Source: a virus
Taxonomy: Duplodnaviria > Caudoviricetes
Reading direction: 5' to 3' (one strand)
Virus record (IMG/VR): IMGVR_UViG_3300025000_000994
Location: 1-61,128 of that record
Length of the DNA: 61,128 nt
Part shown: positions 8,633 through 54,314 of the stretch, piece after piece
Numbering within the stretch: the first letter of the stretch is position 1
Layout of the letters: the number at the start of each line of letters is the position of its first letter
Notes under the pieces: generated by a model
The model's input: the letters and a program-made list of their open reading frames with translations, nothing else
Databases searched by the model: none
Told to the model about the DNA's origin: nothing
Position numbers and translations under genes: made by a program

Positions 8633-8634
8633 AA

Positions 8635-13007: not shown

Positions 13008-13036
13008 CTTGGATTCCTCCGCTTTCTACCGGATTA

Positions 13037-13429
13037 TTACCGGTTGATATTTACTATCTTTCTGCCAGCCTTGTTGTCTGTAGCTTCCAAAATCTCGCCT
13101 GTTTCTTTATCAACTTGAATTGCCGTCTGCCCAGGTATAGTATGCTTTGCATATTCCTCAGCAATAACTTGACCGTTGTTGTCCTTTCCAAGAAATAGCT
13201 GTGTTAAAACTGGCGTGTATGGACTTACGGAGCTCTTTGCTTTGAGTCCTAATTGCACGCTTTCTCTGGTATCATCCATTGACTTGAATTCCAGTTCCAG
13301 AGTGACCTTTCTAGCCTTCTTCCAATCTGTGTTTTTGTCGAGAATGTTTTTGAGTACATTTTCGATTTCAACATCTGCCCTCTCCATGAGAGCTCCCTTT
13401 GCTACGCTTGCTATATTAAGCTTGTCCAT
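13037..13429 (-). CDS. Phage protein (family often labelled replication terminator protein)
   Basis: GALMER..ENVLKNILDKNTDWKKARKVTL; typically paired with the gene at 12294-13007. Confidence 0.6.
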   Translation of the reverse strand: MDKLNIASVAKGALMERADVEIENVLKNILDKNTDWKKARKVTLELEFKSMDDTRESVQLGLKAKSSVSPYTPVLTQLFLGKDNNGQVIAEEYAKHTIPGQTAIQVDKETGEILEATDNKAGRKIVNINR

Positions 13430-13517
13430 GTGTGTTTTACCTCCTTCCCTTAATAATTGGCATGTGATATAATTGATTTGGACATTTTGTTTCAGCCTCT
13501 TTGAGAGGCTTTTTCTT

Positions 13518-13769
13518 TTACTCTCCTGCATCTTTCAAGCACTTATGGCATACTTTTATACCATACTTTACTAATCCCTCAACCAGATCATCAGATTCCT
13601 TGCACACTCCGCATGTTGGTTGATACTTTTTGAGAATGATTTCTCCATTTTCGCCCATGAAGATTTCCAATGGAGTACCCTCATCAATTGCCTGTGTCGT
13701 GCAAATTTCCTGTGGAATAACCAATCTGTGGAGGCTATCCACCTTTCTTACAATGCCAGTAGCTTTCAT
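13518..13769 (-). CDS. AbrB/SpoVT-family transcription regulator
   Basis: MKATGIVRKVDSLHRLVIP..PLEIF..IILKKYQP plus a C-terminal CxxC pair. Confidence 0.85.
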   Translation of the reverse strand: MKATGIVRKVDSLHRLVIPQEICTTQAIDEGTPLEIFMGENGEIILKKYQPTCGVCKESDDLVEGLVKYGIKVCHKCLKDAGE

Positions 13770-13794
13770 TTCTTCAATCTCCTCTCCCTTCAAA

Positions 13795-14013
13795 TTAAAA
13801 AATATTGCCTTTCCAGTTATACTTCTTTGATATCTCAGCGAGCCTTATCAGCCGCTTTTGAACCCTTAACGTGTGTAGATATAAGTGCTTTACCTTGAAC
13901 CGCCTTACCCTACTGCCTTTCATATCGCGGATCATCCAACCGAATGTAAAGGATATGAAGCAAAGTAAAAGAATGAGTGAAACTGCCTGTAACGGACTTG
14001 CCCCTGTATCCAT
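13795..14013 (-). CDS. Small membrane protein
   Basis: Single hydrophobic helix and basic tail. Confidence 0.5.
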   Translation of the reverse strand: MDTGASPLQAVSLILLLCFISFTFGWMIRDMKGSRVRRFKVKHLYLHTLRVQKRLIRLAEISKKYNWKGNIF

Positions 14014-14027
14014 ATAACCCCTTCTTT

Positions 14028-14282
14028 CTACGCGTACATCTTGACAGGATGCCGCAGGTTGTAGTAGTACACTGCCCTGCGTTTCGGCTTGCTGAGCTTG
14101 CTCAGTTTGGTTGCTTTGCGGCGTTTCTCGATGATAGCAACCTTACGCGGATCCTTAGGATTGCGGATACCCGGAATGATTTTGCATCCTTCAAACTTGC
14201 TGGTGTGAATTGGATTGGTGTATCTGTTCCCGCCAGCTGACATTGCGAAGATTGCAGCGATTAAACTTTTTAATTTGTCCAT
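14028..14282 (-). CDS. Small basic protein
   Basis: RBS AGGAGG; K/R-rich. Confidence 0.55.
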   Translation of the reverse strand: MDKLKSLIAAIFAMSAGGNRYTNPIHTSKFEGCKIIPGIRNPKDPRKVAIIEKRRKATKLSKLSKPKRRAVYYYNLRHPVKMYA

Positions 14283-14289
14283 AACGACC

Positions 14290-14481
14290 TCCTATAAATT
14301 TATTTTGTTTCGGAGAGGACAGTCGCGACCTGCCTCTCCACCATTTGTACATACTGCCTAGGACTTAACACCCGTTTTTATATTGGACATTTCTGCCCTG
14401 CTCTTATGGGTTTTGGTGGAAGATATGAGATTGACTACTCACTGTCTCCCAGATAAAGCGGGTCGATTCACCGCCCGCTTT
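14290..14481 (-). ncRNA. Conserved structured intergenic RNA, copy A (contains a tRNA-like minihelix at 14414-14450)
   Basis: Homologous to 60020-60214 with stems preserved despite loop and stem-length changes. Confidence 0.55.
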
Positions 14482-14501
14482 GGTTTGCACAGTCACCGTA
14501 T

Positions 14502-14642
14502 TCAAACAAATCCAGTAGGATATCCGATTACCACCGACCTGCGGCGTGGACTATCGACTGTACCGCTTGCATAACAGACTGTGCAATGTCTTATCAAACT
14601 GTTCAGCCAATCGTACCAATCGAATCCGAATATTGCCTCCAT
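14502..14642 (-). CDS. Conserved 46-aa microprotein (not in the ORF track)
   Basis: RBS GGAGG; MEAIFGFDW...VIGYPTGFV matches MDGIFGYSW...VVGYPSGFV at 60271-60408. Confidence 0.7.
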   Translation of the reverse strand: MEAIFGFDWYDWLNSLIRHCTVCYASGTVDSPRRRSVVIGYPTGFV

Positions 14643-14725
14643 AGGCTTCCTCCGACACTTTTATTCTTTAGCCCGGTACATATCGACCTGTACCGAATAA
14701 TAGTGGGCTAGCTAGTTGGCTTTAT

Positions 14726-14763
14726 GGATGAACCCGCCAGAACCGCTTAGAAACTTTACAAAT
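14726..14763. repeat. 38-bp conserved element (further copies at 57310-57347 and 60496-60533)
   Basis: GGAT(G/A)AACCCGCCAGAACCGCTTAGAAACTTTACAAAT, at least 37/38 identical. Confidence 0.9.
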
Positions 14764-14970
14764 GAGTGGCATCACCTACCTTTGTGGATATAATTTGCAG
14801 ATAATTATTGCTCAATATTTTCTGAAATGGTATGAATGTACGTTTGTTCGTCAATTTCCAATTCCACAATATCGGTTTCGCTGTTATATCCGACTACTCT
14901 GCCAACATGCCCAGCACAAGCGCCTCCCTTTATTTCTGCCATGAGGTTAACGAAAACCTTTTTCACGTTC

Positions 14971-15105
14971 TCACTCCCCTTCCATCCCTATATCCACCAC
15001 CCGCCCATCCCGGACGGTAAAATATGTGCCTGTTAGCCTGTACCAGTCTGCGAACCAGTGGATGTCGGTTTGCTCATTGAGGATGATTGATTTTTCAAGT
15101 GGCAT
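14971..15105 (-). CDS. Conserved 44-aa protein
   Basis: MPLEKSIILNEQTDIHWFADWYRLTGTYF..; near-identical copy at 57544-57678; RBS AGGAGG. Confidence 0.7.
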   Translation of the reverse strand: MPLEKSIILNEQTDIHWFADWYRLTGTYFTVRDGRVVDIGMEGE

Positions 15106-15134
15106 GTGAGCCTCCTTTGTGCGGATTCTCCTTC

Positions 15135-15335
15135 TTATCCGCAATTACAATTATCACCTCTGGCCGTGATTGTACCCTTTGCTACCCTGGAATCTAAAAA
15201 TCTACCAGTATCAGTACCCTTTACACATTCAAAGCCATTTGCACCGCAAACAAGGTATCGGCAGCATTCATTGCCCTGTCCTATTTTGCATACGGTTTTT
15301 ACTTTGTCTATTTGTACCTTCTTTGTGTTTTCCAC
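15135..15335 (-). CDS. Small Cys-rich protein
   Basis: CKIGQGNECCRYLVC; copy at 60962-61128. Confidence 0.7.
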   Translation of the reverse strand: MENTKKVQIDKVKTVCKIGQGNECCRYLVCGANGFECVKGTDTGRFLDSRVAKGTITARGDNCNCG

Positions 15336-19264: not shown

Positions 19265-20449
19265 ATGGCACGGCCTAAAAAACAGAACGACAAGCCATTA
19301 ACACGTAATCCTAATGGAATGGGCAACATTTATAAAAGACCTGATGGCAGGTATGAATGGAAGCAGATGGTTGATGGTGAGGTGCGGTACGAATCAGATA
19401 TAAATCTGTCTGAACTAAGAAGGAAAATAAAGAAACAAACAAACATAGGCATTAATAAGGATAAAACAAAATTATTTGAATGGATAGCCTACTGGCTTGA
19501 AAACTATGTTCAGCCTTATAAAAAACCTTCCACGTACAATAACTACAAATTCGCTTACGAAAAGTACATCAAAAAATATATGAGAAATGTCCAGCTAAGG
19601 CATGTTACAAAGATGGATGTTCAAAAAATGATAACAGACCTAATTAATGATAAGTATTCACCGTCATTAATAAAGAATGTTCGCAAGGCTTTAAGTGCTG
19701 CATTTATTTCAGCAAATGAGGAGGAACAGATCGTTGACTTCAACCCAACCAGAGACACTAAACTGCCCAAAGGCAGAACCCCTACCCGAAAAACTTTGAA
19801 ATTAGAGGAGCTAATTGCAGTTATTAATAAGTTTAAGACATCAAGGTGGTTATATGCTATCTTATTTATGCTTGCTACAGGATTGAGAAGGGGCGAACTA
19901 TTAGCCGTAAGATGGTCTGATATTGACTTTAAAGAAAAGCGTATCGGCATAGAAAACAATCAAACTCAATACGGGATTGACACGCCAAAAGACAATGAAT
20001 ACCACTATGTGCCGTTAACAGATCACGCCGTGGCCTATTTGTCTGGATGGAAAAACCAGCTTCAAAAGGAATACAACCCAGCCATATATCACAAAGTTGA
20101 TACTATTTTTGTATCAAAAAGTGGACAACCCTTACGACCTTCAAGTTTTAATAACACACTGGCAAAGCGCAAATTTGATTTTAAAGTAACGCCACACATG
20201 TTCCGGCATACCTTCGTATATCTCTCAAAGGGCAAAATAAGCCTGAGTGAATTGCAGGAAGCATTAGGACACGACCAGTCAACTACTACATTGGATATAT
20301 ACGGTCTTATGCTCGCTGATACTGTTGCTGTTGCTGATAAAATTGAAATAGCATACAAAGAATTGGATGAAGCTATGAAGGAAAATAAAAAGAAAAAGCA
20401 GGAAAGTAATGTTGTAGATTTCACACAAAGAAGATTAGCAAAACAATAA
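19265..20449 (+). CDS. int: Tyrosine integrase
   Basis: N-terminal arm-binding GNIYKRPDGRY; catalytic TGLRRGE, HMFRH, LGH and DIYG. Confidence 0.95.
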   Translation: MARPKKQNDKPLTRNPNGMGNIYKRPDGRYEWKQMVDGEVRYESDINLSELRRKIKKQTNIGINKDKTKLFEWIAYWLENYVQPYKKPSTYNNYKFAYEKYIKKYMRNVQLRHVTKMDVQKMITDLINDKYSPSLIKNVRKALSAAFISANEEEQIVDFNPTRDTKLPKGRTPTRKTLKLEELIAVINKFKTSRWLYAILFMLATGLRRGELLAVRWSDIDFKEKRIGIENNQTQYGIDTPKDNEYHYVPLTDHAVAYLSGWKNQLQKEYNPAIYHKVDTIFVSKSGQPLRPSSFNNTLAKRKFDFKVTPHMFRHTFVYLSKGKISLSELQEALGHDQSTTTLDIYGLMLADTVAVADKIEIAYKELDEAMKENKKKKQESNVVDFTQRRLAKQ

Positions 20450-32018: not shown

Positions 32019-32639
32019 TTATCTGCTCCAATCCTTTAATTTCTTTGAGCGTGGGTTGTTAAGATATTTAGCAAGAAGAATCTGTCCCATGAGTTCATTA
32101 TATTTCTGCGTGTAGTTATTCGCTGTGGTGGTGTCTGGATTGCTCCCCGATCCTGCTATTTCAGCGATTGCGCCATATACTAAAATCCTGTGCCAATCCT
32201 CTCTCAACTCCGGTGTTTCGCCCGTGTTGGATGAATTCATCAATGCAGGGCGTTTTTTGAATATTAACCTTATGTTCCATCCGGTAGTATCAGGCATGGG
32301 GTATAAGCCAATTAAGCCGTTGAAGGCATCAAAGTATCTGTATCCGCTCATGTTCTCATTTAAGTCTGCGAGAGTGTATTCCTGAAACTCTGAATTTGAA
32401 GTTATTACAGCATCTTTTGTCAAACCGACATATTCAAGAAACTCAACTTCGCAATTTGTGGGCAAAGAATAAGACCACTGATCAGCAACTGTGTTAAACT
32501 CATATATGTCTTTAATCTGTAGTTCTCTGAATATTTCTCTCTGTTCATCGTTCAGAATGCTTGTTATCTCGGCATCTGTCCATGTCGCGGCTTTCGGGTA
32601 ATACCGCTTTATTTTGGTTAATATTTCAGCGAGTGTCAT
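32019..32639 (-). CDS. Head-tail adaptor/tubular protein A-like protein
   Basis: MTLAEIL..LNDEQREI..LYPMPD..WHRILVYGAIAE. Confidence 0.7.
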   Translation of the reverse strand: MTLAEILTKIKRYYPKAATWTDAEITSILNDEQREIFRELQIKDIYEFNTVADQWSYSLPTNCEVEFLEYVGLTKDAVITSNSEFQEYTLADLNENMSGYRYFDAFNGLIGLYPMPDTTGWNIRLIFKKRPALMNSSNTGETPELREDWHRILVYGAIAEIAGSGSNPDTTTANNYTQKYNELMGQILLAKYLNNPRSKKLKDWSR

Positions 32640-32679
32640 TTGACCATCTCCTTACTTCACATAATTATCCGTATGCGTT

Positions 32680-32814
32680 TTAAAATAAGTTTATATAATC
32701 TTCGTAAACCTCAACATTTGTAAATTCAACGCATCCACCTTCACAGAAAATATCCAGTTCTTTTTGCTCATCAGATAACTCATTTAATTTTTCAATTAAT
32801 GCTTTAGCTTTCAT
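32680..32814 (-). CDS. 44-aa protein inserted in the tail module
   Basis: MKAKALIEKLNELSDEQKELDIFCEGGC, related to 45612-45818. Confidence 0.55.
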   Translation of the reverse strand: MKAKALIEKLNELSDEQKELDIFCEGGCVEFTNVEVYEDYINLF

Positions 32815-33011
32815 TTATCTCACTTTCCTTGTATACTACAAATTTGTCTCCGCTACGTTGTTTACGCATTCTCTTTCCTCTGCTGATATTTGCAGTTTGT
32901 TGGCAATGCTTTTTACCAACTCGTCAACACCGTATCCTTCAGAGACAGCCCATAATACAATTGACTGCATTTTATTTAATTCATCTTGAGAAAAAATTAT
33001 AACAAACCTCC

Positions 33012-34622
33012 TTATGCATTCGGTATTCTCAATACTCTGTATCCAGTGCCGCCAGAATCATTTGCACCGATTGACACGTCAAGTCCAGCATATTTAATTG
33101 CAGGTACACTAACCTTTCCAGAACCTGTCTGCCGCGTTAATCGCAAATCTCCTGTAGCTGTTTCAACATTAATATTCCATTTACTACTTGAGTCTCCAGC
33201 TAGTAACCCGATATGGGTATTAGAACCGCATATCATCATTGGCTCCGTTGCTAATGCTGCTAGTGCCGCTAATATTCCCGCATCTGAAGCCGCAAAAACA
33301 GTACTCTTCAATTTAAACTTGTTTTGATAGCCTAAACTTGTAGACCATGTTAATACAGCATCAGTTTCAATAACAGGATCTTTTGTTCCGTTTCCTTTGT
33401 CGATATACAGCACAGTGTTTTCCCGTGATGGATAAGTATAGCTTTCTGTACCACGGGCAATAATGGAATAGGCTAGTGTTTTGTTTGAAATGCCTACGTG
33501 CATAAAGAAGTTTCCTGCCGCGCCGCTGCTAATTAAATCATTTCTTCCTCGTAATTCTATTCCTGTACCCGTGCTTGTATTATCTAAAACATGAAAACGT
33601 GTTTGCGTAAAGAAATTATTATCCGCATCGTCTACAGTTATGCCGTTCCCATTATGAATACCACCTTGAATACTTTCAAAATAATTGTATGATGTATTAC
33701 CTTTTTTACCCGCAACAGATGTTCCGCCAGTCAAAAATAGCACAGCGCCATCTTTAATTCTTTGTTTACCTGTAATCATAGAAAATACGTTTTTTTGCGA
33801 ATCCGATGCTTCTGTAATTGCTCCCGTGGTGTCTACGCCGACATATAAACCCGCTACGCCAAATTCATTAAAATATAAAGAGTCAAATCTTGAATTATTC
33901 ACACTTTTTATTACTAGTCCATAATCTGCTAAATCATTTGCTATAAAAGATATATTGCTAATTTGGCATGAATCAATACGTGTAAGTGATGTTGCGTGTG
34001 GGCATAACTCCATCATTGTTCCATTCGCTGCACCAATCCAAGTAAATCTAGTAGCAGCAATATTTCCAGATGCATCATGTATGTCACCCATACCAAATCC
34101 TATTAAATGTATGTTTGAATTATCAATAACAACCTTCGAAGCGAGTCCATAATTAGCAGGAGGAAACACGATACGTGCTCCGTTTACAGATTTAGCATAT
34201 TGAATAATTGCGTTGATTGCCTCTGAATCGTCTGTACCATCACCTTTTACAGGAACTAATGGAGCAGGCGGAGCGAAAACATTAATATATACTTGTGCTG
34301 TAGCTGCCGTATGCGAAGTAAAACTATTTACGGTTATAGTTGAACCGCCCGTGATGGTTACATTGTTACCTAAAAATGTTATGCCTGTAGTATTGGTCAA
34401 GGCAGTTATTTTATAAGTCTTACCACTTACAAAGTTAATATCTGAAACGCCTGCCGCTATAGCCGCATCAACCGCCGCCTGTACTGCCAAAGTGTCGTCC
34501 GTTACTCCGTCGCCTACTGCGCCATAGGCAGATACCCATATCTGGCCTACTTTGTTTATAAAAAAATTGCTTATTTGTGATTGTGCCGTATAAATACTTA
34601 AGAGTTCAGCTGGAGTTGGCAT
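33012..34622 (-). CDS. Tailspike with a pectate-lyase-like beta-helix
   Basis: YGAVGDGVTDDT and KGDGTDDSEAI motifs, N/G-rich beta repeats. Confidence 0.8.
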   Translation of the reverse strand: MPTPAELLSIYTAQSQISNFFINKVGQIWVSAYGAVGDGVTDDTLAVQAAVDAAIAAGVSDINFVSGKTYKITALTNTTGITFLGNNVTITGGSTITVNSFTSHTAATAQVYINVFAPPAPLVPVKGDGTDDSEAINAIIQYAKSVNGARIVFPPANYGLASKVVIDNSNIHLIGFGMGDIHDASGNIAATRFTWIGAANGTMMELCPHATSLTRIDSCQISNISFIANDLADYGLVIKSVNNSRFDSLYFNEFGVAGLYVGVDTTGAITEASDSQKNVFSMITGKQRIKDGAVLFLTGGTSVAGKKGNTSYNYFESIQGGIHNGNGITVDDADNNFFTQTRFHVLDNTSTGTGIELRGRNDLISSGAAGNFFMHVGISNKTLAYSIIARGTESYTYPSRENTVLYIDKGNGTKDPVIETDAVLTWSTSLGYQNKFKLKSTVFAASDAGILAALAALATEPMMICGSNTHIGLLAGDSSSKWNINVETATGDLRLTRQTGSGKVSVPAIKYAGLDVSIGANDSGGTGYRVLRIPNA

Positions 34623-34699
34623 ATTGCCACCTACTTTCCATAAAAATAGGACCTACCTTATAGATAAGTCCTGTGTAATATATTCCGAGGTCGAAGTAA

Positions 34700-35524
34700 T
34701 TATACTGCCGTACCTGCCGAATCTACCCATCCATTGTTTGCTGCATTACGCCATATTGGTTTATTTAGTGTTGTGTCAAACCACTGCTCACCTGCTACTG
34801 TGTTGGTTGTTGGACGTGCCGCAGTAGTGCAAGTATTAACCATCTGAACCATTTTCGTAGCTGAGTCTCTTGCATCAGTTATCTTTACGGCTTTGCCAGC
34901 TTCGCGGGCTTTTAAAACAAGGTCACCTTTCACTGCATCATATATCTGACCGCCAGTAACGCCAGAAGGTGTTTGCAATGTAATTGTGGATGTAGCGCTA
35001 TCCCAGTTAAAGTATAATTTAATAGAACCTATGGAAGCTAAAGCAAGCATATATTTGTTATTGTATAGGCAATCAATTATAAAGGCCGCATCGGTTGTAT
35101 TTGCTGGTCTTTGGTTTTGCAGTATGGCTTGTCTATCACCCGTCCAATTGAAATTTGCATCCTTAGTAACTAAAAGTAAATCTCCCCTACCATATTCAGT
35201 GTCTTCCGTAAGTTTTATAAAACTACCAGTACCAACAAAATCTGCTGGCTTATCAGGTCTCCATGTTTCATTGTGTGCGTTTTTTATTACAAATACAGAA
35301 TTAGACGCGCCTACATTGTCTATCTGCATAGCTACACCATCAGTATAATGATGTAATGCTACTGCTAACGGTTCATTACCTAAACCCTGTTGAGCGAGAT
35401 TCTCTAAATTTACTATGCCTTCTGTATCCGTTGTAGTATTTGTTACTTCAATTCTTTTATTGTCTAGGTTCGACTTAGATGCCAAGTCTGCACGTGCTTG
35501 TTGGTCTGAAAAATAATTCAGCAT
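34700..35524 (-). CDS. Tail fibre/receptor-binding-like protein
   Basis: C-terminal TTAARPT..GEQWFDTTLNKPIW..WVDSAG motif. Confidence 0.65.
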   Translation of the reverse strand: MLNYFSDQQARADLASKSNLDNKRIEVTNTTTDTEGIVNLENLAQQGLGNEPLAVALHHYTDGVAMQIDNVGASNSVFVIKNAHNETWRPDKPADFVGTGSFIKLTEDTEYGRGDLLLVTKDANFNWTGDRQAILQNQRPANTTDAAFIIDCLYNNKYMLALASIGSIKLYFNWDSATSTITLQTPSGVTGGQIYDAVKGDLVLKAREAGKAVKITDARDSATKMVQMVNTCTTAARPTTNTVAGEQWFDTTLNKPIWRNAANNGWVDSAGTAV

Positions 35525-45611: not shown

Positions 45612-45818
45612 TTAACCCCTTATAGCCGTCCTATGAGGAGGAGCATAATAATAATACTTCCCGGGATAAACAGTTTCTCTTTTAGTATCTTCGTAATTTT
45701 TAATATCAATATCTGAACAGGTTTCTTCATCGTATTCGCAACCACCGGCTACAACTACCTTAATTTTTTTATCTTGGTCAAGTGCTTTTAATTGTTCTAT
45801 TAAATCTTTAACTTTCAT
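45612..45818 (-). CDS. Hypothetical protein
   Basis: MKVKDLIEQL; RBS AGGAGG. Confidence 0.6.
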   Translation of the reverse strand: MKVKDLIEQLKALDQDKKIKVVVAGGCEYDEETCSDIDIKNYEDTKRETVYPGKYYYYAPPHRTAIRG

Positions 45819-46070
45819 AAAAAGCCTCCTTGAAAAATTATTCTGAAAAATTTGTGAATTGTGAGAGGGTATTATATATAGCGTGACCGGGTGCCTCCCC
45901 CGATGGCCCCCGCCCCTACCCATCCAGTATCATCGCATAATCACGTACACATCAAATCATACTCATATACGCTACAAAATACACGCATAATATACTATGT
46001 ACGCTTACATACTGTAGGTACGTAGCCATATTTATACCCTTGATTACACGAAATAAACCATTCGCGTACT

Positions 46071-46700
46071 CTAACCTTCATCAATAACCTTGTAGTCTAC
46101 TCCCAGTAATGCTTCAAGGTTTTGTATCTCTGTGTCAAGTTGGGCGAGTTCTTGCTGTTTTTGAGGCAATTGGAAATTATTCACCGTAATATTGCCTATT
46201 TCGCCTTGTTTCGCTTGAATATAACCTGGCATATTATTACGAAAGTATAGGTCCATTGCGTTGACATCGGGTGGAAAGTATTGTTCCTCTTTATAATCAA
46301 CTACATCGCCGTCTTTGGTGACTTTCTGCTTATTTAGCACTACTTTAATACCATTAGCACGTTTAAAGCCGGAATTCATTGTGAGACAGTTGCGGGCATC
46401 GTGGGCGCGCACGAATAGTTCCGCAAATTCCTCATACTCACCCTTCCATCTTGATAATGTTTTATAATGTACTCCTATTTGATTGGCAATTGAATAATCG
46501 TTCATCCCCTCAGCTGACCATTGAATTATCTTGTTAAATAATGGTTTGGCCAATTGGGTATACTTTGTCTTTCTCTCTGCCTCGGTATCTTCCCGCCGGT
46601 CTGCATAATCCATACTAATATATTTATCTTGTACTATAATGCTTGTCTCTGCCGCTCCTGTAGGCTCTTTAACCGCCATATCCTTATCCAATATAATCAC
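46071..46700 (-). CDS. terS: Terminase small subunit-like HTH protein
   Basis: GMNDYSIANQIGVHYKTLSRWK and PPDVNA; first gene of the late operon. Confidence 0.7.
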   Translation of the reverse strand: MIILDKDMAVKEPTGAAETSIIVQDKYISMDYADRREDTEAERKTKYTQLAKPLFNKIIQWSAEGMNDYSIANQIGVHYKTLSRWKGEYEEFAELFVRAHDARNCLTMNSGFKRANGIKVVLNKQKVTKDGDVVDYKEEQYFPPDVNAMDLYFRNNMPGYIQAKQGEIGNITVNNFQLPQKQQELAQLDTEIQNLEALLGVDYKVIDEG

Positions 46701-46998
46701 CTACTTTATAACATGCTTTCTACTTTCCAGATAACTTGCCAGAAACATTTCACAGAGCTGCTTTACTGCTGCCTTTTCTTGTGTGCTACCATGTTTCCAT
46801 ATTGCATATAAGTCAATAATATTATTACGAATTGCCATGCTCATATATCTCACATCCCTCTACACAAAAATAGAGTCACCCTCTCGGACAACTCTCACAA
46901 TATTACGGCAAAATAAAAGAACCGCTCATGTGAACGGCTCTTGACTCTTTAAGTATAACACAATACAGTTCCATATTATGTGAGTAAAAAGTGAGTTT

Positions 46999-47223
46999 TT
47001 ATTTATTTTTGGGGTTATCTGGATGAACACAGCGATTATCTTGAAAGAATACACATGAGGTTATATCTCTTGCTTTGCTTAAATCCTCATTTGTAAATAT
47101 CGTGTACTCGTTTACGCTCTTCTTTGTTGTCTTTTTCATAACCGGAATATGTTTCCCATTGCACCAATGCCCCTTATGCCCACACTTATCTTTTATAAAT
47201 GCCTCCATCTGATCATTTAACAT
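46999..47223 (-). CDS. Small Cys/His protein
   Basis: RBS GGGGAA. Confidence 0.45.
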   Translation of the reverse strand: MLNDQMEAFIKDKCGHKGHWCNGKHIPVMKKTTKKSVNEYTIFTNEDLSKARDITSCVFFQDNRCVHPDNPKNK

Positions 47224-47224
47224 T

Positions 47225-47680
47225 CTATTTTCCCCCTTCAAGTAATTTTGTTTGAATTTTTCTTATGACCTTACAATCAATCTGTTTGCAATATTCTTCG
47301 TTTAAATCAACCTCAATTGATATTGATGCCCAACTATATTTGGGTTTCCTCACATCGTTTATCATCGGACTGATAAAGTACCGCATTTCTATGATTGTTC
47401 TCGCTGGCTCCTTAAGGTAAAAATATACTGAGTTGATTGCGTTCACAATACGCATCTTGCCATCTATTTTATTCTCTAAATCCGCCACATAATCAACTCT
47501 GTTTACTACAAGTGATTCTACTGTTGATGTCCCAGAATGGCATATAGGCATGTCTGTTATTACTTTAGGCTTCATTCCATCCATTAGCCTGTATTCTTTT
47601 AGGCTGTCGGATAATGCTTGTATTTCATCTTTAAGCTTATCGTAGCTGTGTAGATGGAATCTGATTTCATTTGTGTTCAT
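47225..47680 (-). CDS. ArpU/RinA-like late transcription activator
   Basis: ITDMP..RTIIEMRYF..SWASISIE; located before terS. Confidence 0.7.
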   Translation of the reverse strand: MNTNEIRFHLHSYDKLKDEIQALSDSLKEYRLMDGMKPKVITDMPICHSGTSTVESLVVNRVDYVADLENKIDGKMRIVNAINSVYFYLKEPARTIIEMRYFISPMINDVRKPKYSWASISIEVDLNEEYCKQIDCKVIRKIQTKLLEGGK

Positions 47681-48031
47681 CCGCTCACCTCACTATATCG
47701 CGTTATACAATCTACCGCTCACCCTTGCTATCCTGTGCGTTTCCACTGCCTGTATATCCTGCTTTTCCTGCCACTCCTGCAATGCTTTGCGCTTGCGCTT
47801 GATATTCTCGCGTATCTCCATCATGCGGAGAAATTTAGCTTTATCCATTTTTATTCCCCCATCATCTTTGCGCCACAATTGGCACAATAATTTGATTTAA
47901 CAACTGTTCCGTGTCTGCAAATACTACACCTGTAAAACCTTCTAGGAGCATATTTCGGCTCGTCAAATTCATCCATGCTTATAAACGCGTGTGCTGTCCA
48001 GCCTTTCCATGTTCCGAATTTATCCATTCCC

Positions 48032-48391
48032 TCACGCTCCTATCTCTTGTATTTCTACCTCAATGTGCGGATTTGCTTTATCTACCTCAAATCTATCCTC
48101 GAATCCTTCTATCTGCTTCCATCCATCATTTTCAAGCACTCCTGCGCTGACAAGCCCATCAAGTATAAATTTCTTTGCAAAACTTATATTGTCAGGGTCT
48201 TTTTTCTCATTCGCGCAGTACCATGTAAATATTATCTTTGCTTTAGTTTTTACAGGTGGTAATCTCCTGGCATACATAAAAGCTATGCCGGTATTTTCTT
48301 TCTTGATGTTTGCCGCTTGAAACTTGTTGCCTCTCTCGGCTTGTATGTATGTATTCAGATCGGTTAATAGGTGTGGTATGTCAAATTTCAT
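48032..48391 (-). CDS. rusA: RusA-like Holliday junction resolvase
   Basis: KDPDNISFAKKFILDGLVSAGVLENDG. Confidence 0.75.
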   Translation of the reverse strand: MKFDIPHLLTDLNTYIQAERGNKFQAANIKKENTGIAFMYARRLPPVKTKAKIIFTWYCANEKKDPDNISFAKKFILDGLVSAGVLENDGWKQIEGFEDRFEVDKANPHIEVEIQEIGA

Positions 48392-48933
48392 TCCCCCACC
48401 ACCTTATCTATTGATTCTATCGCGTATCGCATATTAACTAATATTTTTTGATTGTCTCCGGTATTTCTGCACTTTAAATTGCGTAACCCACTAGATAGCG
48501 CTTCTCTCGCTTGTTTCAACGCCGCCTTATACATCCCATTCTGCGCAAGTAGCTTTGCACATTGTGATTGCTCAAAATCATTCAACCTGGCGCACTTGTC
48601 ACGGAGTGATTTATTCTCCTGCTCAAGCCGCTCTATGTACTGATCTGCTTTGTCCAACGCACTACCGTTATATGTTTTTACTAAATCGCTATTTACAACA
48701 TCGAGAAGCGTTTTTGCCTGTAGTTGCTTGATCATCTTATCTCTATGCACCATCTGCACATTGGCATCTGCAATGTCGGCGCGGAAGATGTCATTCTCTT
48801 GCTGCAAGGCTTCTATTGTGTCAATGCAATCTAACCCCAACCTTGATAATGTAACTGTTAAGGATGATAAATTTGTGTCGTTGTAATTGTCAAAAGTTTT
48901 TCTAGTTTCTTTAACTTCCTTCTCGTTCAACAT
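48388..48933 (-). CDS. Coiled-coil phage protein
   Basis: Partially homologous to 1705-2109. Confidence 0.6.
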   Translation of the reverse strand: MLNEKEVKETRKTFDNYNDTNLSSLTVTLSRLGLDCIDTIEALQQENDIFRADIADANVQMVHRDKMIKQLQAKTLLDVVNSDLVKTYNGSALDKADQYIERLEQENKSLRDKCARLNDFEQSQCAKLLAQNGMYKAALKQAREALSSGLRNLKCRNTGDNQKILVNMRYAIESIDKVVGE

Positions 48934-48944
48934 TCCAATCCCTC

Positions 48945-49154
48945 CTATCCATCTGTTTCTTTTCCTCCTGGTTCCATCGTGCGCCAAAACGTTTCATCCG
49001 GCGGTTCCAATTCCTCTACACTTTCCAGAGGCCACGTAATACCGTTGATCCGGCAGAAATCCATAATACATACCTCTGGCACACTTTTGCGAAAATCCCC
49101 GTACATGCCCAGGTAAATCTCCTTGTACTGTTCAATTGCTTGACGTGCATTCAT
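48945..49154 (-). CDS. Conserved small phage protein
   Basis: Paralogue of 2269-2463. Confidence 0.7.
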   Translation of the reverse strand: MNARQAIEQYKEIYLGMYGDFRKSVPEVCIMDFCRINGITWPLESVEELEPPDETFWRTMEPGGKETDG

Positions 49155-49200
49155 GGCCTCAGCTCTCCTTTCTATGTTTGAACTATCTTGTTATGTTGAA

Positions 49201-50025
49201 CTAACTGATTAAACTTATTTGCTTGCCAACCGGCTCATAATTCATCCATAAAACTTCTTGCCTCTGCTGTCCACCTTCACACCTGGCTTGCCGTTTTTCT
49301 GTATGCCATCCCTCCAGGAGGTTGCTGTACAATTCACTTTCATACCCGGATATCATCACGGGCCCCGGATGTTTCTGCAGGAGCTCGAGTAATTGAGTGT
49401 GATCTTGATCTGTCATTTCATGAGCATAAATGCGGCCGCTGCGGGTACTTCTCACATACGGAGGATCCGCATATATGAAAACGTATGACCTTGCATATCT
49501 CTCTAAGAGTTGAGTAGCTGCCTGGTTTTCTATGTTTACTTGATGGCTTGGTACATGCTTAAATCTTTTGGATGTTTCTATAAGCCTTGCCGGTAACTTT
49601 GTAGCCCATTGGTCTACATTGCCGTTTAGATCCTGAATATTATTTCTCCATCCAGTTATATCACTTGTTTTGGATCCTATTGCCTGCCACATTCTTACGA
49701 GAAATCTTCTGGCATCCTCGAGGCTTTCACCGATCATTTCATAGCTGCTTTTATATTCCTGCCTGCTCCATGGTGTGAACTCGATCATGCGAGCCAGTTC
49801 TTCAGGGCAATCCCTAATTACTTTAAACAGGTTTACTACATTGCCATCCAAGTCATTGATTGTTTCTATAACCGACCGCTTTTTATTAAAAAATATAGCC
49901 CCGGATCCAAAGAAGGGTTCAAGATAAGTCATTTTCTCGTAGCCTTCCGGAAAGTATGAAATAATCCATTCTGCTGTACTCCATTTACTACCCGGATATT
50001 TTAACACTGTTTTTATATCACTCAC
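49201..50025 (-). CDS. Dam-like N6-adenine DNA methyltransferase
   Basis: KYPGSK, EPFFGSG, INDLD and ADPPY. Confidence 0.9.
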   Translation of the reverse strand: MSDIKTVLKYPGSKWSTAEWIISYFPEGYEKMTYLEPFFGSGAIFFNKKRSVIETINDLDGNVVNLFKVIRDCPEELARMIEFTPWSRQEYKSSYEMIGESLEDARRFLVRMWQAIGSKTSDITGWRNNIQDLNGNVDQWATKLPARLIETSKRFKHVPSHQVNIENQAATQLLERYARSYVFIYADPPYVRSTRSGRIYAHEMTDQDHTQLLELLQKHPGPVMISGYESELYSNLLEGWHTEKRQARCEGGQQRQEVLWMNYEPVGKQISLIS

Positions 50026-50444
50026 CCCACTACCACCTTCATAGTCAGCAGATCAGCCAGCGTAACCATTTCAATCCTGCCGTGCCGATTCTTTATTAGT
50101 AATTTATTAGGATACTTTGTTTCAACTTCTCCGGACACACGCTGTGTTTTTCTACCCTCATACCGAGTCAAGGTTATTTTGTTACCCTTTTGCAGCTTTT
50201 CAATCTGTTGTTTTGCCCGGTTTATATTGGTTGCAAGGCTTATCAACTTTTTATCTTCACACATGATTTTGTTATTAAGCTTTATATCCTCGCTTTCATC
50301 TGGTTCAACTATTCCACGCTTTTCATTGGAATAATGCTGTATTGTACTTTTACCGCAATTGTATAACTCACCTATTTGCACATATGTCATACCAGCCTTG
50401 CGATGGACGGATATTTCTTTTATTTGTTCAGTTGTAAGTTTCAT
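50022..50444 (-). CDS. HTH domain phage protein
   Basis: Near-identical to 3949-4371. Confidence 0.7.
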   Translation of the reverse strand: MKLTTEQIKEISVHRKAGMTYVQIGELYNCGKSTIQHYSNEKRGIVEPDESEDIKLNNKIMCEDKKLISLATNINRAKQQIEKLQKGNKITLTRYEGRKTQRVSGEVETKYPNKLLIKNRHGRIEMVTLADLLTMKVVVG

Positions 50445-51313
50445 GCCACACCTCCAAAATACCTTATTGCCTGTTGCCCTATCCATCGTCCCATATCTAC
50501 CGCAACCGCATTCCCGACCTGCTTGTATATATCCCGGTCTGATCCTGCAAACTTGAAGCTATCCAGGAAGCCTTGTAATCTTGCGTACTCTCTTGGTGTG
50601 TATGGCCTAATTCTGCTACCGTCTTTTACCAACCTTGTACTTACATCCTTAGAGTAATGAGCTACACAGCATGGGGCTATATCTCCTGCATCTGGATCTG
50701 ATATGATGGGCTTGTCCCGGTATGCACCATTCAAGCGGCTGTAAACATAATCCGGTATGTCAATGTCCGGGTCCTTCTCGAGAATGTCTTTTAGCCTTAA
50801 TGGTTGTGTGAATACTGCATATTGTAAGTTATTAAATGGCTTCCGCGTACCGAATACTATTAACCTTTTGCGCTCTTGCGGAAGCCATTCCCGGGCATTT
50901 ACCGGGCATTCCACACGAACGTAATAATCAGGTAGCTTTGTCATTGCTTCCATAACAACCGGGAATTTTCGCATCCCAGGAACATTTTCAACTATGTACA
51001 TTTCTGGCTGTTCAAGCGCTATGTGTCGCAGTGAATGCAGGAATAATTCATCACCTGTACGGGTCCCGTGAATATCTGCAACTGGTGAATACTTAGTGCA
51101 CGGATATGTAAAAACCATAATATCTGACTTTGGCTGATCCAGTACAGTTTTCTTGGTTATGTCTGTTTCAAGGACTTCATGTGTAAAATTCATCCTAAGT
51201 GTTTCACAACAAATCCGGTCTATCTCATACGATTGAATTATTTGTATTCCGGCATCCGACAGGCCGTAGTCCATACCGCCAGCCCCGGAAAAATAACTTT
51301 TAGCTGTAATCAT
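50441..51313 (-). CDS. C5 cytosine DNA methyltransferase
   Basis: SYFSGAGG, YPC, ENV, QERKR and GNAV. Confidence 0.9.
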   Translation of the reverse strand: MITAKSYFSGAGGMDYGLSDAGIQIIQSYEIDRICCETLRMNFTHEVLETDITKKTVLDQPKSDIMVFTYPCTKYSPVADIHGTRTGDELFLHSLRHIALEQPEMYIVENVPGMRKFPVVMEAMTKLPDYYVRVECPVNAREWLPQERKRLIVFGTRKPFNNLQYAVFTQPLRLKDILEKDPDIDIPDYVYSRLNGAYRDKPIISDPDAGDIAPCCVAHYSKDVSTRLVKDGSRIRPYTPREYARLQGFLDSFKFAGSDRDIYKQVGNAVAVDMGRWIGQQAIRYFGGVA

Positions 51314-51332
51314 TAGTCTAATTCCTGCCCCC

Positions 51333-52133
51333 TCACACATCTTTATAAAGTTTATTAAAGTATTCATCTGGGTACTGTCTCTGTTCAAAGTTTCCCGCCT
51401 GTGGCATTTTAGATTGCTGAATTTGTTTTGGTCGGTCTTTTTGGAGTAGCAACGTATCAAACTTTTCCCGGAGTTTTCCGGCTGACAATATAACTGCTTT
51501 CCAAAATGTGTCCTTCTGGCTAAATTCCATCACTGCGAATATTTGTTCGTCAGTCCGCTTGTCCAACCTTTTCATTTTGTCAAATTCAGATTGCCACTTT
51601 GTCAAATCCGTTGGCGTTTTTGCTCCGGAGTTATTTTGCAGGATAAGAAATTTTAATCTGTCAGCCATCTGAATTATTTCAGATGAATATATATCTTTTA
51701 ATTCTTTTAGTTCTTTATATTTATTGTTTGGCGTTTTCTGTGCGTTGAGTGTGCGTTTTCTGTGCGTTTTCTGTGCGTTGGGGATTCCTTCTGGTTCAGT
51801 ATTATCAGCGCTTTGATACACGCAATAATTTGTTACCTCATATAACGTGTAATGACGACTTGACAAGATGGTTATCATTTTTTCTTTAACCAACAGTTTA
51901 ATAAATTGTCTTACTGATGATTCAGACCATCCCCACATCTCAGCTAATTTATAATTACTTGAAATAAACTGGCCTCGCAACACCCATGTACAGTCACCAT
52001 ATCCAATTACTTTTTTACAAACATGATTACACCGGAACATCATATCTGTAAAAGCTTGACCTTTTGAAAATGGCTTGTCGTTCCAGATTGGGTTTTCTTG
52101 TAGCTTCCGGTATAACTTGATGTATCCGTCAAT
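51333..52133 (-). CDS. Phage replication initiator, probable ATT start codon
   Basis: ATT-GAC-GGA-TAC (IDGYIKLYR) aligns with MDGWIKLYR of the prophage A initiator; C-terminus highly similar. Confidence 0.75.
   Translation of the reverse strand: MDGYIKLYRKLQENPIWNDKPFSKGQAFTDMMFRCNHVCKKVIGYGDCTWVLRGQFISSNYKLAEMWGWSESSVRQFIKLLVKEKMITILSSRHYTLYEVTNYCVYQSADNTEPEGIPNAQKTHRKRTLNAQKTPNNKYKELKELKDIYSSEIIQMADRLKFLILQNNSGAKTPTDLTKWQSEFDKMKRLDKRTDEQIFAVMEFSQKDTFWKAVILSAGKLREKFDTLLLQKDRPKQIQQSKMPQAGNFEQRQYPDEYFNKLYKDV
51729..51780. repeat. Iterons, probable origin of prophage B
   Basis: GCGTTTTCTGT three times plus TGTGCGTT repeats next to an AT-rich tract. Confidence 0.7.
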
Positions 52134-52183
52134 TTGTAATCACCCCCTAAGAGGGGCTATGCACCCCTCATGTATCAATTTCC

Positions 52184-52588
52184 TTAAAATGGAAGTTCGT
52201 CATCCTCTAATAGTGTCGTATTATACTCACCGTCATTGCTCTGGCTTAATGGTTTATCTGCGCTTCCGGATTCAGATTTCTTCCCGTTGCAAAAAGTAAA
52301 ATCGTTTACAACAATCTCGGTAATAGTATGTTTTTTGCCTTCTTTGTCCGTCCATTCTCTTGTTGCAAGCCTCCCAGATATTCCAATCAGATCACCCTTG
52401 CCAAAAAACTTTGTAATGTTCTCCGCTGTCTTTGTCCATGCCTGACAGTTAAAGAAGAAAGTTTTCTTCTTGTCGCCAAACCCATCATCAACGGCTATTG
52501 AAAAACTGCATACCGCTGTGTTGTTGGCTGGCAAGTATCGTAATTCAATGTCCTTTGTGATGCGGCCTATAATATTAACACTGTTCAT
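52184..52588 (-). CDS. ssb: Single-stranded DNA-binding protein
   Basis: MNSVNIIGRITKD; acidic tail DDELPF. Confidence 0.92.
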   Translation of the reverse strand: MNSVNIIGRITKDIELRYLPANNTAVCSFSIAVDDGFGDKKKTFFFNCQAWTKTAENITKFFGKGDLIGISGRLATREWTDKEGKKHTITEIVVNDFTFCNGKKSESGSADKPLSQSNDGEYNTTLLEDDELPF

Positions 52589-52592
52589 GTTC

Positions 52593-53045
52593 TCAATCCC
52601 CTTTCCGCTTTTTATATAACTCCCTAAACTGTCCCAATATAAAATCCGCAGCCTTGTCCTTCTCTACAAACTTCAATTCAAGTTGAAACTTATGGCACCA
52701 GGTTGCAAGGAAACTTTTCAAATCGTTTGGCATCATTCTGCTACGGTACTGGTGGGCTTCTAGCTGCTCCATTGAAGCCTCAACCATTAATATGACCTTG
52801 CAACCTTTTGACCGCTCAAATTCCCGTTTAAAGCGTTCACGGCCTTTTGTAAAATTGCCGATTATTTCATCCAGTGAACCTTTGCGCTCGACAACAATTT
52901 CATTTTCATAGCTTTTGCCATCAACCTCAAAACTGTAATCTCCATAGTTTAATTTTCGCCGGACATATGGAATTTTGAGCGCATCGAGTTTTCTTAAAAT
53001 ATGTAAATCTTGCTCTCTGGTATCGACAATAATTGTGCCTTTCAT
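52593..53045 (-). CDS. ERCC4/XPF-family nuclease
   Basis: VDTRE..GDY..VERK. Confidence 0.85.
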   Translation of the reverse strand: MKGTIIVDTREQDLHILRKLDALKIPYVRRKLNYGDYSFEVDGKSYENEIVVERKGSLDEIIGNFTKGRERFKREFERSKGCKVILMVEASMEQLEAHQYRSRMMPNDLKSFLATWCHKFQLELKFVEKDKAADFILGQFRELYKKRKGD

Positions 53046-53046
53046 A

Positions 53047-53805
53047 TCAGCCGCAAAGCTCCAAATATTCAACCGGCTTGGTTAAGATCTTGGTTGACTT
53101 GCAATAGTCACACCTTCCGCACCGAGTAGGCACGATCAAGCCCTTTTTGATATCTGCAAATCTTGGAGCGTATTGTATAACCATATCAAGACAATAATCA
53201 AGTCTGGATTGTGGGATACTGATTATTTCTAAATCCGGTTCGGGCTTTTGTTTTGTGGCCCCAGCAATGAAGAATGGTAGGTTATTGTCCTCTATGAATT
53301 GATATATAGCAGCTTGAATGTCGTAGCCCCACGCCTCAACAAAAGAGAGTTTTAATCCATCTTTCCATATACCGTCGAAATCTTTCATTATCTTCAAATC
53401 AACAATCTTATCGCGCGGATGGTAACTGTCTATTTTGATTTTGAACGGGATGCCCATAATTTCACCAGTTTTAATAACTTGCTTCTCGCCAGACATATAT
53501 TGCTGAAACAGTTCATCACGTTCAAGCCGGGCAATTATGTACTCAGCATGTTTGTAGTCTGATTTAAGCTCACCCTTTTGCGTAAATATTTCTGGATTTT
53601 GTGCTTTGAATAAATCAAGTGTTTTTTCATAGTGCGCGTCAACATAAGATCCAACTAGCAAACTGACCGATTTTTCACGGGCATATTCACCTTTTATCTC
53701 CGCCAATGCAGCGGCTTCACATTCCATAAATGATTTGAATTGACTGCACCCCATGTATTTCATGTTCATTTCAGTAGAAAAATAGTTTTCAGCAGTAAGC
53801 ATCAT
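53047..53805 (-). CDS. PD-(D/E)XK exonuclease (DUF3799/RecE-like)
   Basis: KIKIDS..IVDLK..YDIQAAIY and CGRCDYC. Confidence 0.8.
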   Translation of the reverse strand: MMLTAENYFSTEMNMKYMGCSQFKSFMECEAAALAEIKGEYAREKSVSLLVGSYVDAHYEKTLDLFKAQNPEIFTQKGELKSDYKHAEYIIARLERDELFQQYMSGEKQVIKTGEIMGIPFKIKIDSYHPRDKIVDLKIMKDFDGIWKDGLKLSFVEAWGYDIQAAIYQFIEDNNLPFFIAGATKQKPEPDLEIISIPQSRLDYCLDMVIQYAPRFADIKKGLIVPTRCGRCDYCKSTKILTKPVEYLELCG

Positions 53806-54314
53806 TGTACGTTTTCCCCCTTCGACAATTCTTTTCGTATCCCAGCACATTCAACACATAATGGCAAGCCGTACTTTGTTAAATTGCGCTGTGCAACCTG
53901 TTCGGCTGTCATAGTTTCAAATCCGGTAATTTCTTTTTTGCAATCACCGCAAATTGTTGATATTTTTTTGTCGCTTGGAACCTTTGCTTTGATTCTTAAG
54001 GCATCCACAACCTCACCAAACGCCTTAATTCTATCAGTGTATAATTCAATCTTGCGTCCAGCCCATTCTTCAATGTATGGTGTGTTATAAAGCTTCTCAA
54101 TGGTCTTGGCGTTAGTAGAATTGACTATCATAGGCTTTGTTCCCGGAGGTTCAGAAAAAGTCATTACCATACATTCCTCTTTTTTGCCATCCGGACCGGT
54201 TACATTTTCATTCTTAACCGTTTTAATTGTGACGATCAATGTTTTGCCAGGTTCTAGTGCATATGCCCCGATATAATCGGGGTTATGCAGCTTCTTCCAA
54301 TGCGTCTGACTCAT
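53802..54314 (-). CDS. Recombination-module protein (possible ssDNA binding/annealing) with C-terminal Zn ribbon
   Basis: HWKK..NSTNAKTI..EEWAGRKIEL; between the SMC-like ATPase and the exonuclease. Confidence 0.55.
   Translation of the reverse strand: MSQTHWKKLHNPDYIGAYALEPGKTLIVTIKTVKNENVTGPDGKKEECMVMTFSEPPGTKPMIVNSTNAKTIEKLYNTPYIEEWAGRKIELYTDRIKAFGEVVDALRIKAKVPSDKKISTICGDCKKEITGFETMTAEQVAQRNLTKYGLPLCVECAGIRKELSKGENVQ

Follow-up and report, generated by a model that had tools for sequence, protein, structure and literature searches.

The tailspike gene of an uncultured groundwater phage is very probably an evolutionary chimera, in which an N-terminal anchor is joined to a horizontally exchanged receptor-binding cassette by short-homology or general recombination, with no dedicated site system. 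The gene lies in IMG/VR record IMGVR_UViG_3300025000_000994, a complete virus record of 61,128 bp with ends classed as linear and rated 100% by CheckV; the whole of this stretch is referred to here as the window. An initial annotation of this DNA had proposed that receptor-binding modules are swapped here as in-frame cassettes at one family of recombination sites. As far as the tailspike is concerned, the cassette is real: the same C-terminal block is found in frame on unrelated anchors, and the anchor is kept with other C-termini. The module, its ends and its multiple contexts are plain from the alignments, and the data are those of exchange between phages over evolutionary time, not of switching within one genome. 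The genes around the fibre and tailspike locus are all on the minus strand. In what follows, L numbers denote related loci, P numbers database proteins, and X1, X3 and X5 public groundwater runs. The features that carry the finding are the following; RBD stands for receptor-binding domain, ORF for open reading frame, RBS for ribosome-binding site and pN/pS for the ratio of nonsynonymous to synonymous polymorphism.

33012..34622, minus strand: tailspike gene, 536 amino acids (aa), with PF12708 and PF12218 matches at residues 30-88 and matches to PHROG tailspike families
34314..34622, minus strand: anchor A, tailspike residues 1-103, common to the tailspikes of L002, L003, L004, L083, L084 and L086
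32661..34313, minus strand: RBD1 cassette, consisting of tailspike residues 104-536, two small ORFs and ~20 nt of 3′ non-coding DNA
32836..32970, minus strand: small ORF 1, 44 aa, 68% aa identity to L087, pN/pS 0.39
32680..32814, minus strand: small ORF 2, 44 aa, 91-93% aa identity in L087 and L091, pN/pS 0.16-0.18
32019..32639, minus strand: SU10-type adaptor gene (PF24175, E 1.5e-23), 80% aa identity to L002, the first backbone gene past the cassette

There is no close GenBank phage: blastn with a 4.2-kb query returned 30 distant records, each covering at most 3% of the query, and 28 of the 30 match only the last 60-130 nt of the fibre gene (within query 2699-2829), the other two query 3217-3287. 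Related loci were found by protein. An adaptor-based search gave one relative with the single protein and five with an alignment. A search with an alignment of the anchor was swamped by generic GDGVTDD pectate-lyase starts: out of 258 relatives 80 were retained, and just two, L003 and L004, proved informative. Carriers of RBD1 were found by searching with tailspike residues 104-536.

The backbone relatives found via adaptor and anchor (L002, L003, L004/L085, L083, L084 and L086) keep tailspike residues 1 to ~104-107 and then diverge fully, and all six anchor-A loci (L002, L003, L004, L083, L084, L086) bear different C-terminal parts. The tailspike stands upstream of the adaptor in 5/5 anchor-A loci that also hold the adaptor gene. 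On the DNA level, similarity to L002 extends over 34651-34304 and then resumes only from 32641, and similarity to L003 stops at 34311.

The RBD1 cassette recurs in four other contigs (L087, L088, L089 and L091) with 87-88% nt identity and on two unrelated N-terminal anchors. A BppU_N anchor of 139 aa is fused to RBD1 in L087, L088, L089 and P0013, and a third anchor type of ~240 aa in L091 and P0015. The RBD1 proteins P0013, P0014 (the L087 protein), P0015 (grouped with L091 by its third anchor) and P0016 (the L088 protein) range from 89 to 98% aa identity, with P0013 98% identical to the window RBD. L087 aligns with window 34322-32661 at 87.2% over 1663 nt, and its flanks are unalignable. Homology of the RBD begins at 34322 in L087 and L089, at 34315 in L088 and at 34313 in L091 and an X5 contig; the L091 match covers 34313-33013 and, after a 1.18-kb insertion, 32915-32658. 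Surrounding genes vary as well. In L087 and L088 the RBD1 gene follows a 524-aa gene, with a 311-aa gene next in L087; in L089 that same BppU_N-anchored gene is preceded instead by a 1231-aa homologue of window 27639-24016; and the neighbour genes in L091 gave zero blastp matches to window proteins. The whole BppU_N-anchored tailspike gene is itself a module, as the similarity between L087 and L089 (88%) begins 2 nt 5′ of the start codon and the upstream genes differ (L087:3957 / L089:4573). Within the RBD, pN/pS is 0.08.

A comparison in 15-nt bins displays a reciprocal switch at the His104 codon. Upstream of this codon L002 and L003 are identical to the window at 10-13 of 15 positions, and from +15 nt on at 2-6 of 15. 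The RBD1 carriers L087, L088, L089 and L091 match at 2-8 of 15 positions upstream and at 9-15 of 15 from the His104 codon on. In the bin from 0 to +15 both groups match the window (anchor relatives 8-9/15, RBD carriers 10-13/15). Public groundwater data, in the form of assembled Logan contigs of three runs (X1 and X3 from one study, X5 from another) in which rare forms can be missed, place ends at the same positions; depth dips and uncovered bins in these runs are given no weight here. These runs hold extra divergent contigs over ~32564-34255, at 2-5 times flank depth, and loose contig ends are found at 32661 (X1, X3) and at 34313 (X5, reading ...EKANKSDFDA before the H, which is the P0015 anchor).

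Short stretches of common sequence are found at both ends of the cassette. On the left, the three anchor types all end in the peptide motif [F/L]x[S/A]-H-x-A-[D/E], encoded approximately by CAT NNN GCA GA, of which CAT-NNN-GCA-G is common to all. This junction motif is present in L002, L003, L087-L089 and L091, and the window has the variant FTSHTAA. A 13-mer, CACATTTGGCAGA, is common to L002 (anchor A with another RBD) and L087 (BppU_N anchor with RBD1), whose genes are otherwise unalignable. On the right, the window, L087 and L091 are near-identical as far as ...CGCATACGGATA(A/T)TTAT, and each then diverges just before the RBS of the next gene, at 32661/32660 (L087, X1/X3 contigs) or 32658/32657 (L091). 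Over the last 63 nt of the cassette, identity to L087 reaches 98%, compared with 87% overall, and L091 is similar there, which makes three contexts in all. A mini-hairpin without a T-run, CGCATA/TATGTG, lies at this right end and occurs in two of the three contexts, being kept in L091 and broken in L087. A conserved 3′ element like that of RBD1 was not evident in L002-L086, nor was a general conserved intergenic element after receptor-binding protein genes found by eye in 26 stretches from 8 loci.

The tailspike displays two pectate-lyase-type starts in tandem (window 34622-34314 and 34250-34150), one in the anchor (GDGVTDDT, residues 37-44) and one where the RBD begins (GDGTDDSEA, residues 127-135). 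Because of this tandem arrangement, anchor A resembles an N-terminal piece of a beta-helix protein that has been reused. Pfam detects a second PF12708 stretch in the tailspike, its position not fixed, and the one PDB match within the RBD is a weak one to a putative pectin lyase at residues 135-179.

The locus is probably the host-recognition module of a temperate groundwater phage of the SU10-adaptor type. Since an integrase and a RecT-family protein are encoded, the phage is probably temperate and has its own recombination function.

19802-20302, plus strand: tyrosine integrase (Phage_integrase, single match), in the lysogeny region 12 kb from the tail locus
7877-8509, minus strand: RecT-family annealing protein

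The 103-aa anchor would have been inherited with the phage backbone and joined in frame at His104 to a horizontally acquired receptor-binding or enzymatic domain, which would have arrived in a 1.65-kb cassette together with the two small ORFs and ~20 nt of 3′ non-coding DNA. The left crossover falls within the junction motif, which offers up to 13 nt of identity between unrelated genes, and the right crossover in the short intergenic stretch before the RBS of the next gene. We infer that the exchange took place by general or short-homology recombination, which the RecT-type function of the phage or a host system could promote, and that selection retains only in-frame, foldable joints. The motif itself may contribute, beside selection, to where the joints lie.

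A mechanism of another kind had been read into the same boundaries by the initial annotation. Four 24-nt strings were taken as one site-specific family with an 8-8-8 layout of arms and spacer, shared with the early region of the genome, at which cassettes would be swapped within the lifetime of the phage. Two of the strings lie at the ends of the neighbouring fibre gene.

34700..35524, minus strand: fibre-type receptor-binding protein, 274 aa, an ORF with GGAGGTG 5 nt 5′ of the ATG
34648..34672, minus strand: intrinsic-terminator-like hairpin and T-run between fibre and tailspike
35469..35492, minus strand: site 1, encoding A12-S18 of the fibre (ATG at 35524), in a predicted N-terminal helix
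34672..34695, minus strand: site 2, non-coding, starting 4 nt past the fibre stop (34702-34700)
34294..34317, minus strand: site 3, encoding S103-A109 of the tailspike and holding the in-frame crossover interval and the motif F-T-S-H-T-A-A
32656..32679, minus strand: site 4, abutting the stop (32682-32680) of the second 44-aa ORF and holding the right end of the cassette

The 24-mers are exact as read, sites 1 and 3 are in the same codon phase, each beginning on a third codon base, and all four spacers start with YGG. Sites 3 and 4 contain both ends of the 1.65-kb cassette, because the limits of DNA similarity (to L002, L003, L087-L089 and L091) and the loose contig ends fall there. These independently mapped breakpoints agree with the positions of sites 3 and 4 to within a few nt, more closely than by chance; at sites 1 and 2 no DNA breakpoint is mappable because the fibre is without a close relative. 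Also in favour of a family are pairwise identities among the four sites of 9-14 of 24, compared with a null mean of 6.3, and the presence of a tyrosine recombinase in the record. Sites 3 and 4 have a 9-mer in common, CGCATACGG (p ~0.007-0.011 for two 40-nt windows).

The defining structure is missing, however. With leave-one-out position weight matrices sites 1-4 rank 152, 18, 5 and 241 of 122,210 positions, which does not set them apart from chance. Left arms agree with the reverse complement of right arms at 3, 3, 3 and 5 of 8 positions in sites 1-4; the null distribution, taken from every 24-mer of the window, peaks at 2-3 of 8, and the arms are thus not inverted repeats. Palindromes of the 8-8-8 layout whose arms are complementary at 7/8 or better number 23 in the window, about the number calculated from the null frequency of 0.0004 per 24-mer (~24), and none of these is at the four sites. 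The near-perfect inverted inner arms claimed for the fibre module (TTCGACYT, 7/8) would turn up by chance in 29% of random pairs of equally large windows, TTCGACYT itself having 5 matches in the window compared with 2.5 expected. YGG, proposed as a family mark, occurs within ±2 nt of 13% of arbitrary positions and is lost at the homologous junction in L003 and L004. There the site-3 arm reads TTCACATT followed by TTG (L003) and CACTCAAA followed by TAG (L004), compared with TTCGCATA followed by CGG in the window and TTCACATT followed by TGG in L002, and arms and YGG are kept in homologues no further than the peptide demands. L087, L088, L089 and L091, the other carriers compared, lack the shared 9-mer CGCATACGG at their left junction, and in the window the breakpoint lies inside it at the left end and 8 nt beyond it at the right end. 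In L087 both the left junction and the right flank differ from the window and the site 4 hairpin is broken, and the two ends of the carriers are unmatched. A relation to the early region was sought with TGTGKATA-N8-TATMCACA (15120, 60947), the only recurring 8-8-8 palindrome found there; no tail site is within 3 mismatches of it, the palindrome having been reconstructed here and possibly differing from the family originally meant.

The annotation was correct that no invertase is adjacent and that there is no diversity-generating retroelement (DGR): family searches gave zero matches to Resolvase, RVT_1 and ERF in the whole record, and, as regards a template/variable repeat pair, no long direct repeat involves tail genes. 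This leaves the integrase 12 kb away and no serine invertase. Nor is host-range switching within one genome borne out, as the window contains no alternative cassette and the public groundwater contigs, from which rare forms may escape, have no joint at the four sites, their sole joint being a 100-nt skip (32823 to 32924). The four 8-8-8 strings are no recombination-site family; sites 3 and 4 merely overlap true module ends, and the apparent family is mostly pattern-matching that chanced on real domain borders. Because the sites are not conserved, the site-specific model is largely refuted and deserves almost no credence.

Several points weigh against ordinary cassette exchange as well. Its mechanism is one that we infer, the events are old, as judged from identities of 75-88%, and breakpoints can be placed only within ~5-20 nt. 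At 3-4 positions the window junction itself (TCG CAT ACG GCA GCT) departs from both parental types. The junction motif may serve structure alone and take no part in recombination, and conservation of its DNA is inseparable from that of the peptide because only two or three independent lineages bear it. Structural support for a domain border is weak, because the AlphaFold2 (AF2) model of the tailspike is poor: it is strand-rich but has a mean predicted local distance difference test score (pLDDT) of 52, with values <50 from residue 359 on, and the suggested border is a dip in pLDDT at residues 101-110. A swap of the fibre is suggested for sites 1 and 2 at the level of the protein family only, with no close relative at hand.

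In another reading, joints form anywhere by illegitimate recombination and the survivors are those at the linker and in the intergenic gap, H-x-A-D/E being a structural cap only. We consider this somewhat unlikely. The breakpoints do coincide with the predicted linker at the pLDDT dip, and the motif is kept as a peptide in unrelated anchors. The interval permitted on the right, from the stop (32680) to the RBS, is only ~25 nt, and two right-end events within 3 nt are unsurprising for that reason (~0.3 by our own estimate). What speaks for homology at the joint is that L002 and L087 share 13 nt there, where a direct score of at least 13 is reached in ~0.06% of random window pairs, that the phage encodes RecT, and that the last 63 nt of the cassette are 98% conserved and the body less so, which resembles what PMC10408124 reports for proposed hotspots.

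A further observation that counts against ordinary exchange is a repeat, TTACTTCR, which has nine copies in the 61 kb, four of them within 2.8 kb and one by each boundary.

32652..32659, plus strand: TTACTTCA copy, inverted relative to the genes, at the right breakpoint and overlapping the adaptor RBS
34314..34321, minus strand: TTACTTCG copy at the end of anchor A
34692..34699, minus strand: TTACTTCG copy directly past the fibre stop
35443..35450, plus strand: TTACTTCA copy, inverted, in fibre codons 25-28

The two ends of the window cassette also resemble each other, with a direct match TTTTAnnnCGCATACGG of 14/17 (p 0.007) and an inverted match, TTACTTCGCATA with TTACTTCACATA, of 11/12 (p 0.013). 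The presence of TTACTTCR at all four boundaries is specific to the window and is left unexplained by ordinary exchange. One can imagine a switch peculiar to this phage, in which the repeats act as inversion or deletion sites, or in which long-range pairing of the mRNA masks the adaptor RBS. The copies on either side of the fibre body form an inverted pair, as do those that flank the RBD1 cassette, and the copies by the fibre stop and the anchor end are direct repeats of each other; in the off state the RBD would be lost, with an anchor-only product ending in ...FTSHNYPYAF. Besides the clustering of four of the nine copies at boundaries, the statistics lend this idea something: TTACTTC within 12 nt of three boundaries (fibre stop, junction and right end) is matched by 11 of 40,000 random triples, and a 7-mer shared by all four boundary windows by 0 of 4,989 random sets, the fourth window having been chosen after the word was seen. 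The inverted 11/12 match (34321-34310 with 32663-32652) would form a 12-bp RNA duplex with one G-U pair, and the right flank of the window is the reverse complement of the L002 anchor end at 13/13 positions. We nevertheless hold such a switch to be very unlikely. The word was picked after exploration, and the three-boundary figure becomes ~0.03, by our own rough estimate, when any 3 of ~10 boundaries are allowed. Three of the copies have local explanations, namely codons F-T-S, codons I-E-V-T of a conserved family motif and the RBS GTAAGGAG. At the analogous boundaries of five relatives the longest common word is 0-5 nt, and the end-to-end scores (direct, inverted) of L087 (6, 5), L002 (5, 6) and L004 (5, 6) are at null level, compared with 11, 10 in the window and 8, 9 in L091. 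There is no alternative C-terminal segment in opposite orientation, and the public contigs report no strand-change joint. By the standard of known invertases, moreover, a 12-bp inverted repeat is short. That the TTACTTCR repeats are functional sites of intragenomic rearrangement or regulation at all, for instance of an inversion/excision switch worked by the tyrosine recombinase or RecT, is highly improbable; if true, it would represent a new, invertase-independent form of programmed host-range variation.

Ordinary exchange of an RBD cassette involves no new mechanism, as the modularity of anchor and RBD and conserved flanking motifs have already been described. PMC6872550 describes an N-terminal anchor with a horizontally transferred enzymatic domain. 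The modular tailspikes and depolymerase receptor-binding proteins of Klebsiella and E. coli phages (PMC6872550, PMC8262889, PMC10408124) likewise display an anchor kept within a lineage, an RBD found across unrelated anchors and contexts, and a second receptor-binding protein with a very short N-terminal part. The present case differs in that the phages are uncultured groundwater phages with an SU10-type adaptor, that anchor A is itself a pectate-lyase-like N-terminal fragment, and that small ORFs and, in relatives, genes for glycan modification travel in the cassette. PMC10408124 proposes, for several genera of E. coli phages, that recombination hotspots are formed by conserved DNA motifs, one where the anchor ends and one in the non-coding DNA 3′ of the RBD, and the anchor-end motif and 3′ flank element found here, across unrelated phages, are similar to these. 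Compared by description, the motifs of that source are 44-95 nt and 20 nt long, the 3′ one terminator-like, whereas the junction motif here is ~12-20 nt and the 3′ element is a mini-hairpin without a T-run that is present in 2/3 contexts.

One receptor-binding cassette in frame on three unrelated anchors represents a clean natural example from uncultured groundwater phages, with both ends mapped to a few nt and a shared junction peptide that marks the joint. Junctions of this type are used by phage engineers to retarget host range, and they aid the prediction of host specificity from metagenomes. T-even tail-fibre adhesins are reportedly swapped by recombination between short conserved motifs (the work ascribed to Tetart et al. 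1998), and the modularity of gp38 is reportedly the subject of PMC3157838. Short conserved motifs around variable host-recognition segments and in-frame exchange are features in common; the His boxes and glycine-rich motifs of gp37/gp38, on the long fibres of myoviruses, are not. Mu Gin/gix, P1 Cin/cix, shufflons and DGRs join a constant N-terminal part in frame to alternative C-terminal receptor-binding parts. A constant N-terminal and a varying C-terminal receptor-binding part are found here too, but with no serine recombinase, reverse transcriptase, opposite-facing segment or conserved inverted-repeat crossover sites.

The fibre beside the tailspike is a second receptor-binding protein, from a widespread family, and is here reduced to its binding body and a short N-terminal helix. 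Its protein is identical to the 274-aa database entry P0001. A word-indexed search, with 12 matches and only the self match full-length, had made it seem an orphan, which was overturned by an exhaustive HMMER search that found 484 relatives at E<=1e-3, the best of them with 44% identity to the query. The part matched in longer proteins is internal or C-terminal, the match opening at query residues 6-29; the 15 best non-self matches (E<=1e-30) all start within these query residues, and 14 of these 15 sit within a longer protein, 43-486 residues in. Among the N-terminal parts of the relatives are BppU_N (6 of the 51 scanned), fibre repeats, Mtd_N, BppL_N and coiled coils, and by eye P0018 has an anchor-A-like start and P0020 and P0028 have starts like the third anchor (anchor C). 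Homology to the longer relatives begins at K(S/T)NLxNKRxE, just past site 1, so that 5-28 residues of the fibre precede the family-conserved body and ~11 precede the conserved start motif. Judged by these alignments, the fibre is an RBD-only member of a large modular family that is joined elsewhere to varied anchors. By analogy it may be held on the virion via its short N-terminal peptide; in PMC6872550, second receptor-binding proteins of Klebsiella phages are modelled as held by peptides down to 7 aa. In the AF2 model of the fibre (mean pLDDT 87), residues 7-16 form a short helix, and an extended body follows.

At the other end of the fibre, the motif ...WFDTTLNKPIWRNAANNGWVDSAGTAV (34700-34840, residues ~225-274) recurs in tail-fibre genes of Klebsiella, Bacillus and Xanthomonas phages, where nt identity is 72-85%. 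The L002 tailspike and CBA120 TSP3 (PDB 5w6f, 6nw9) carry it at their C-termini too, and to judge from this distribution it is a promiscuous C-terminal module. The 47 C-terminal aa of the fibre superpose on the C-terminus of CBA120 TSP3, which is the sole solved-structure match with Foldseek; otherwise the model gave a non-significant resemblance to streptococcal phage hyaluronidase fibres. DNA similarity to the Klebsiella and Bacillus phage fibres stops near the fibre stop (query 2699-2722, window 34698-34721), outside site 2. The last base of site 2 (34672) is the first base of the terminator-like hairpin, and at the same position between fibre and tailspike L002 has, by eye, a different hairpin (GGAGC...GCTCC and T-run). 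Further genes of the locus are:

36119-35526, minus strand: 197-aa ORF
After the adaptor, minus strand: tail proteins of 454 aa and 280 aa

The small ORFs move with the cassette, as had been supposed, being inside the block shared with L087. Small ORF 1 is the least conserved part of the cassette, with 71% nt identity in the 100-nt bin between 32823 and 32924 (its end and the RBS of small ORF 2) that the X1 and X3 contigs skip or replace. In L091, window 33012-32916, which includes the 5′ part of small ORF 1, is replaced by the insertion, with an acyltransferase gene. In relatives, glycan-related genes occupy the slot that separates the tailspike from the next tail gene: an Acyl_transf_3 acyltransferase (L091:5405-6466), a methyltransferase (L083:1983-2567) and an NAD-dependent epimerase/dehydratase (L084:6878-7741). 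Their family assignments suggest that these passengers are morons that modify receptor or surface glycans, beside the RBD cassette and, in L091, inside it. The serotype-conversion genes Sf6 oac and P22 gtr are adjacent to the tailspike in temperate podoviruses. The glycan-related genes beside the tailspike in relatives, and the integrase of the window phage, are in keeping with these systems; unlike them, the slot in the window has only the two 44-aa ORFs, with no assigned function. A 103-aa ORF at 45612-45923 (minus strand) displays 50% identity over 28 aa with small ORF 2 and, on this short match, may be its distant paralogue.

The two outer parts of the record resemble each other. Window 1-15301 and 45800-61128 have six patches in common, 1.5 kb in total, with 73-92% identity, and the last 188 nt (60941-61128) match 15114-15301 at 92%. 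A wrap-around genome was rejected as a reading of these repeats, only 1.5 kb in six patches being similar. The similarity of the ends represents either two mosaic early regions in one record or assembly through related strains, and the true genome may be shorter than 61 kb. Recurring early-region elements at 15120-15143 and 60947-60970 (also 14771-14794 and 57391-57440) contain 8-8-8 palindromes of the TGTGGATA-N8-TATACACA type beside RBS-like sequence. These palindromic elements look operator-like and may be the early-region family of the initial annotation.

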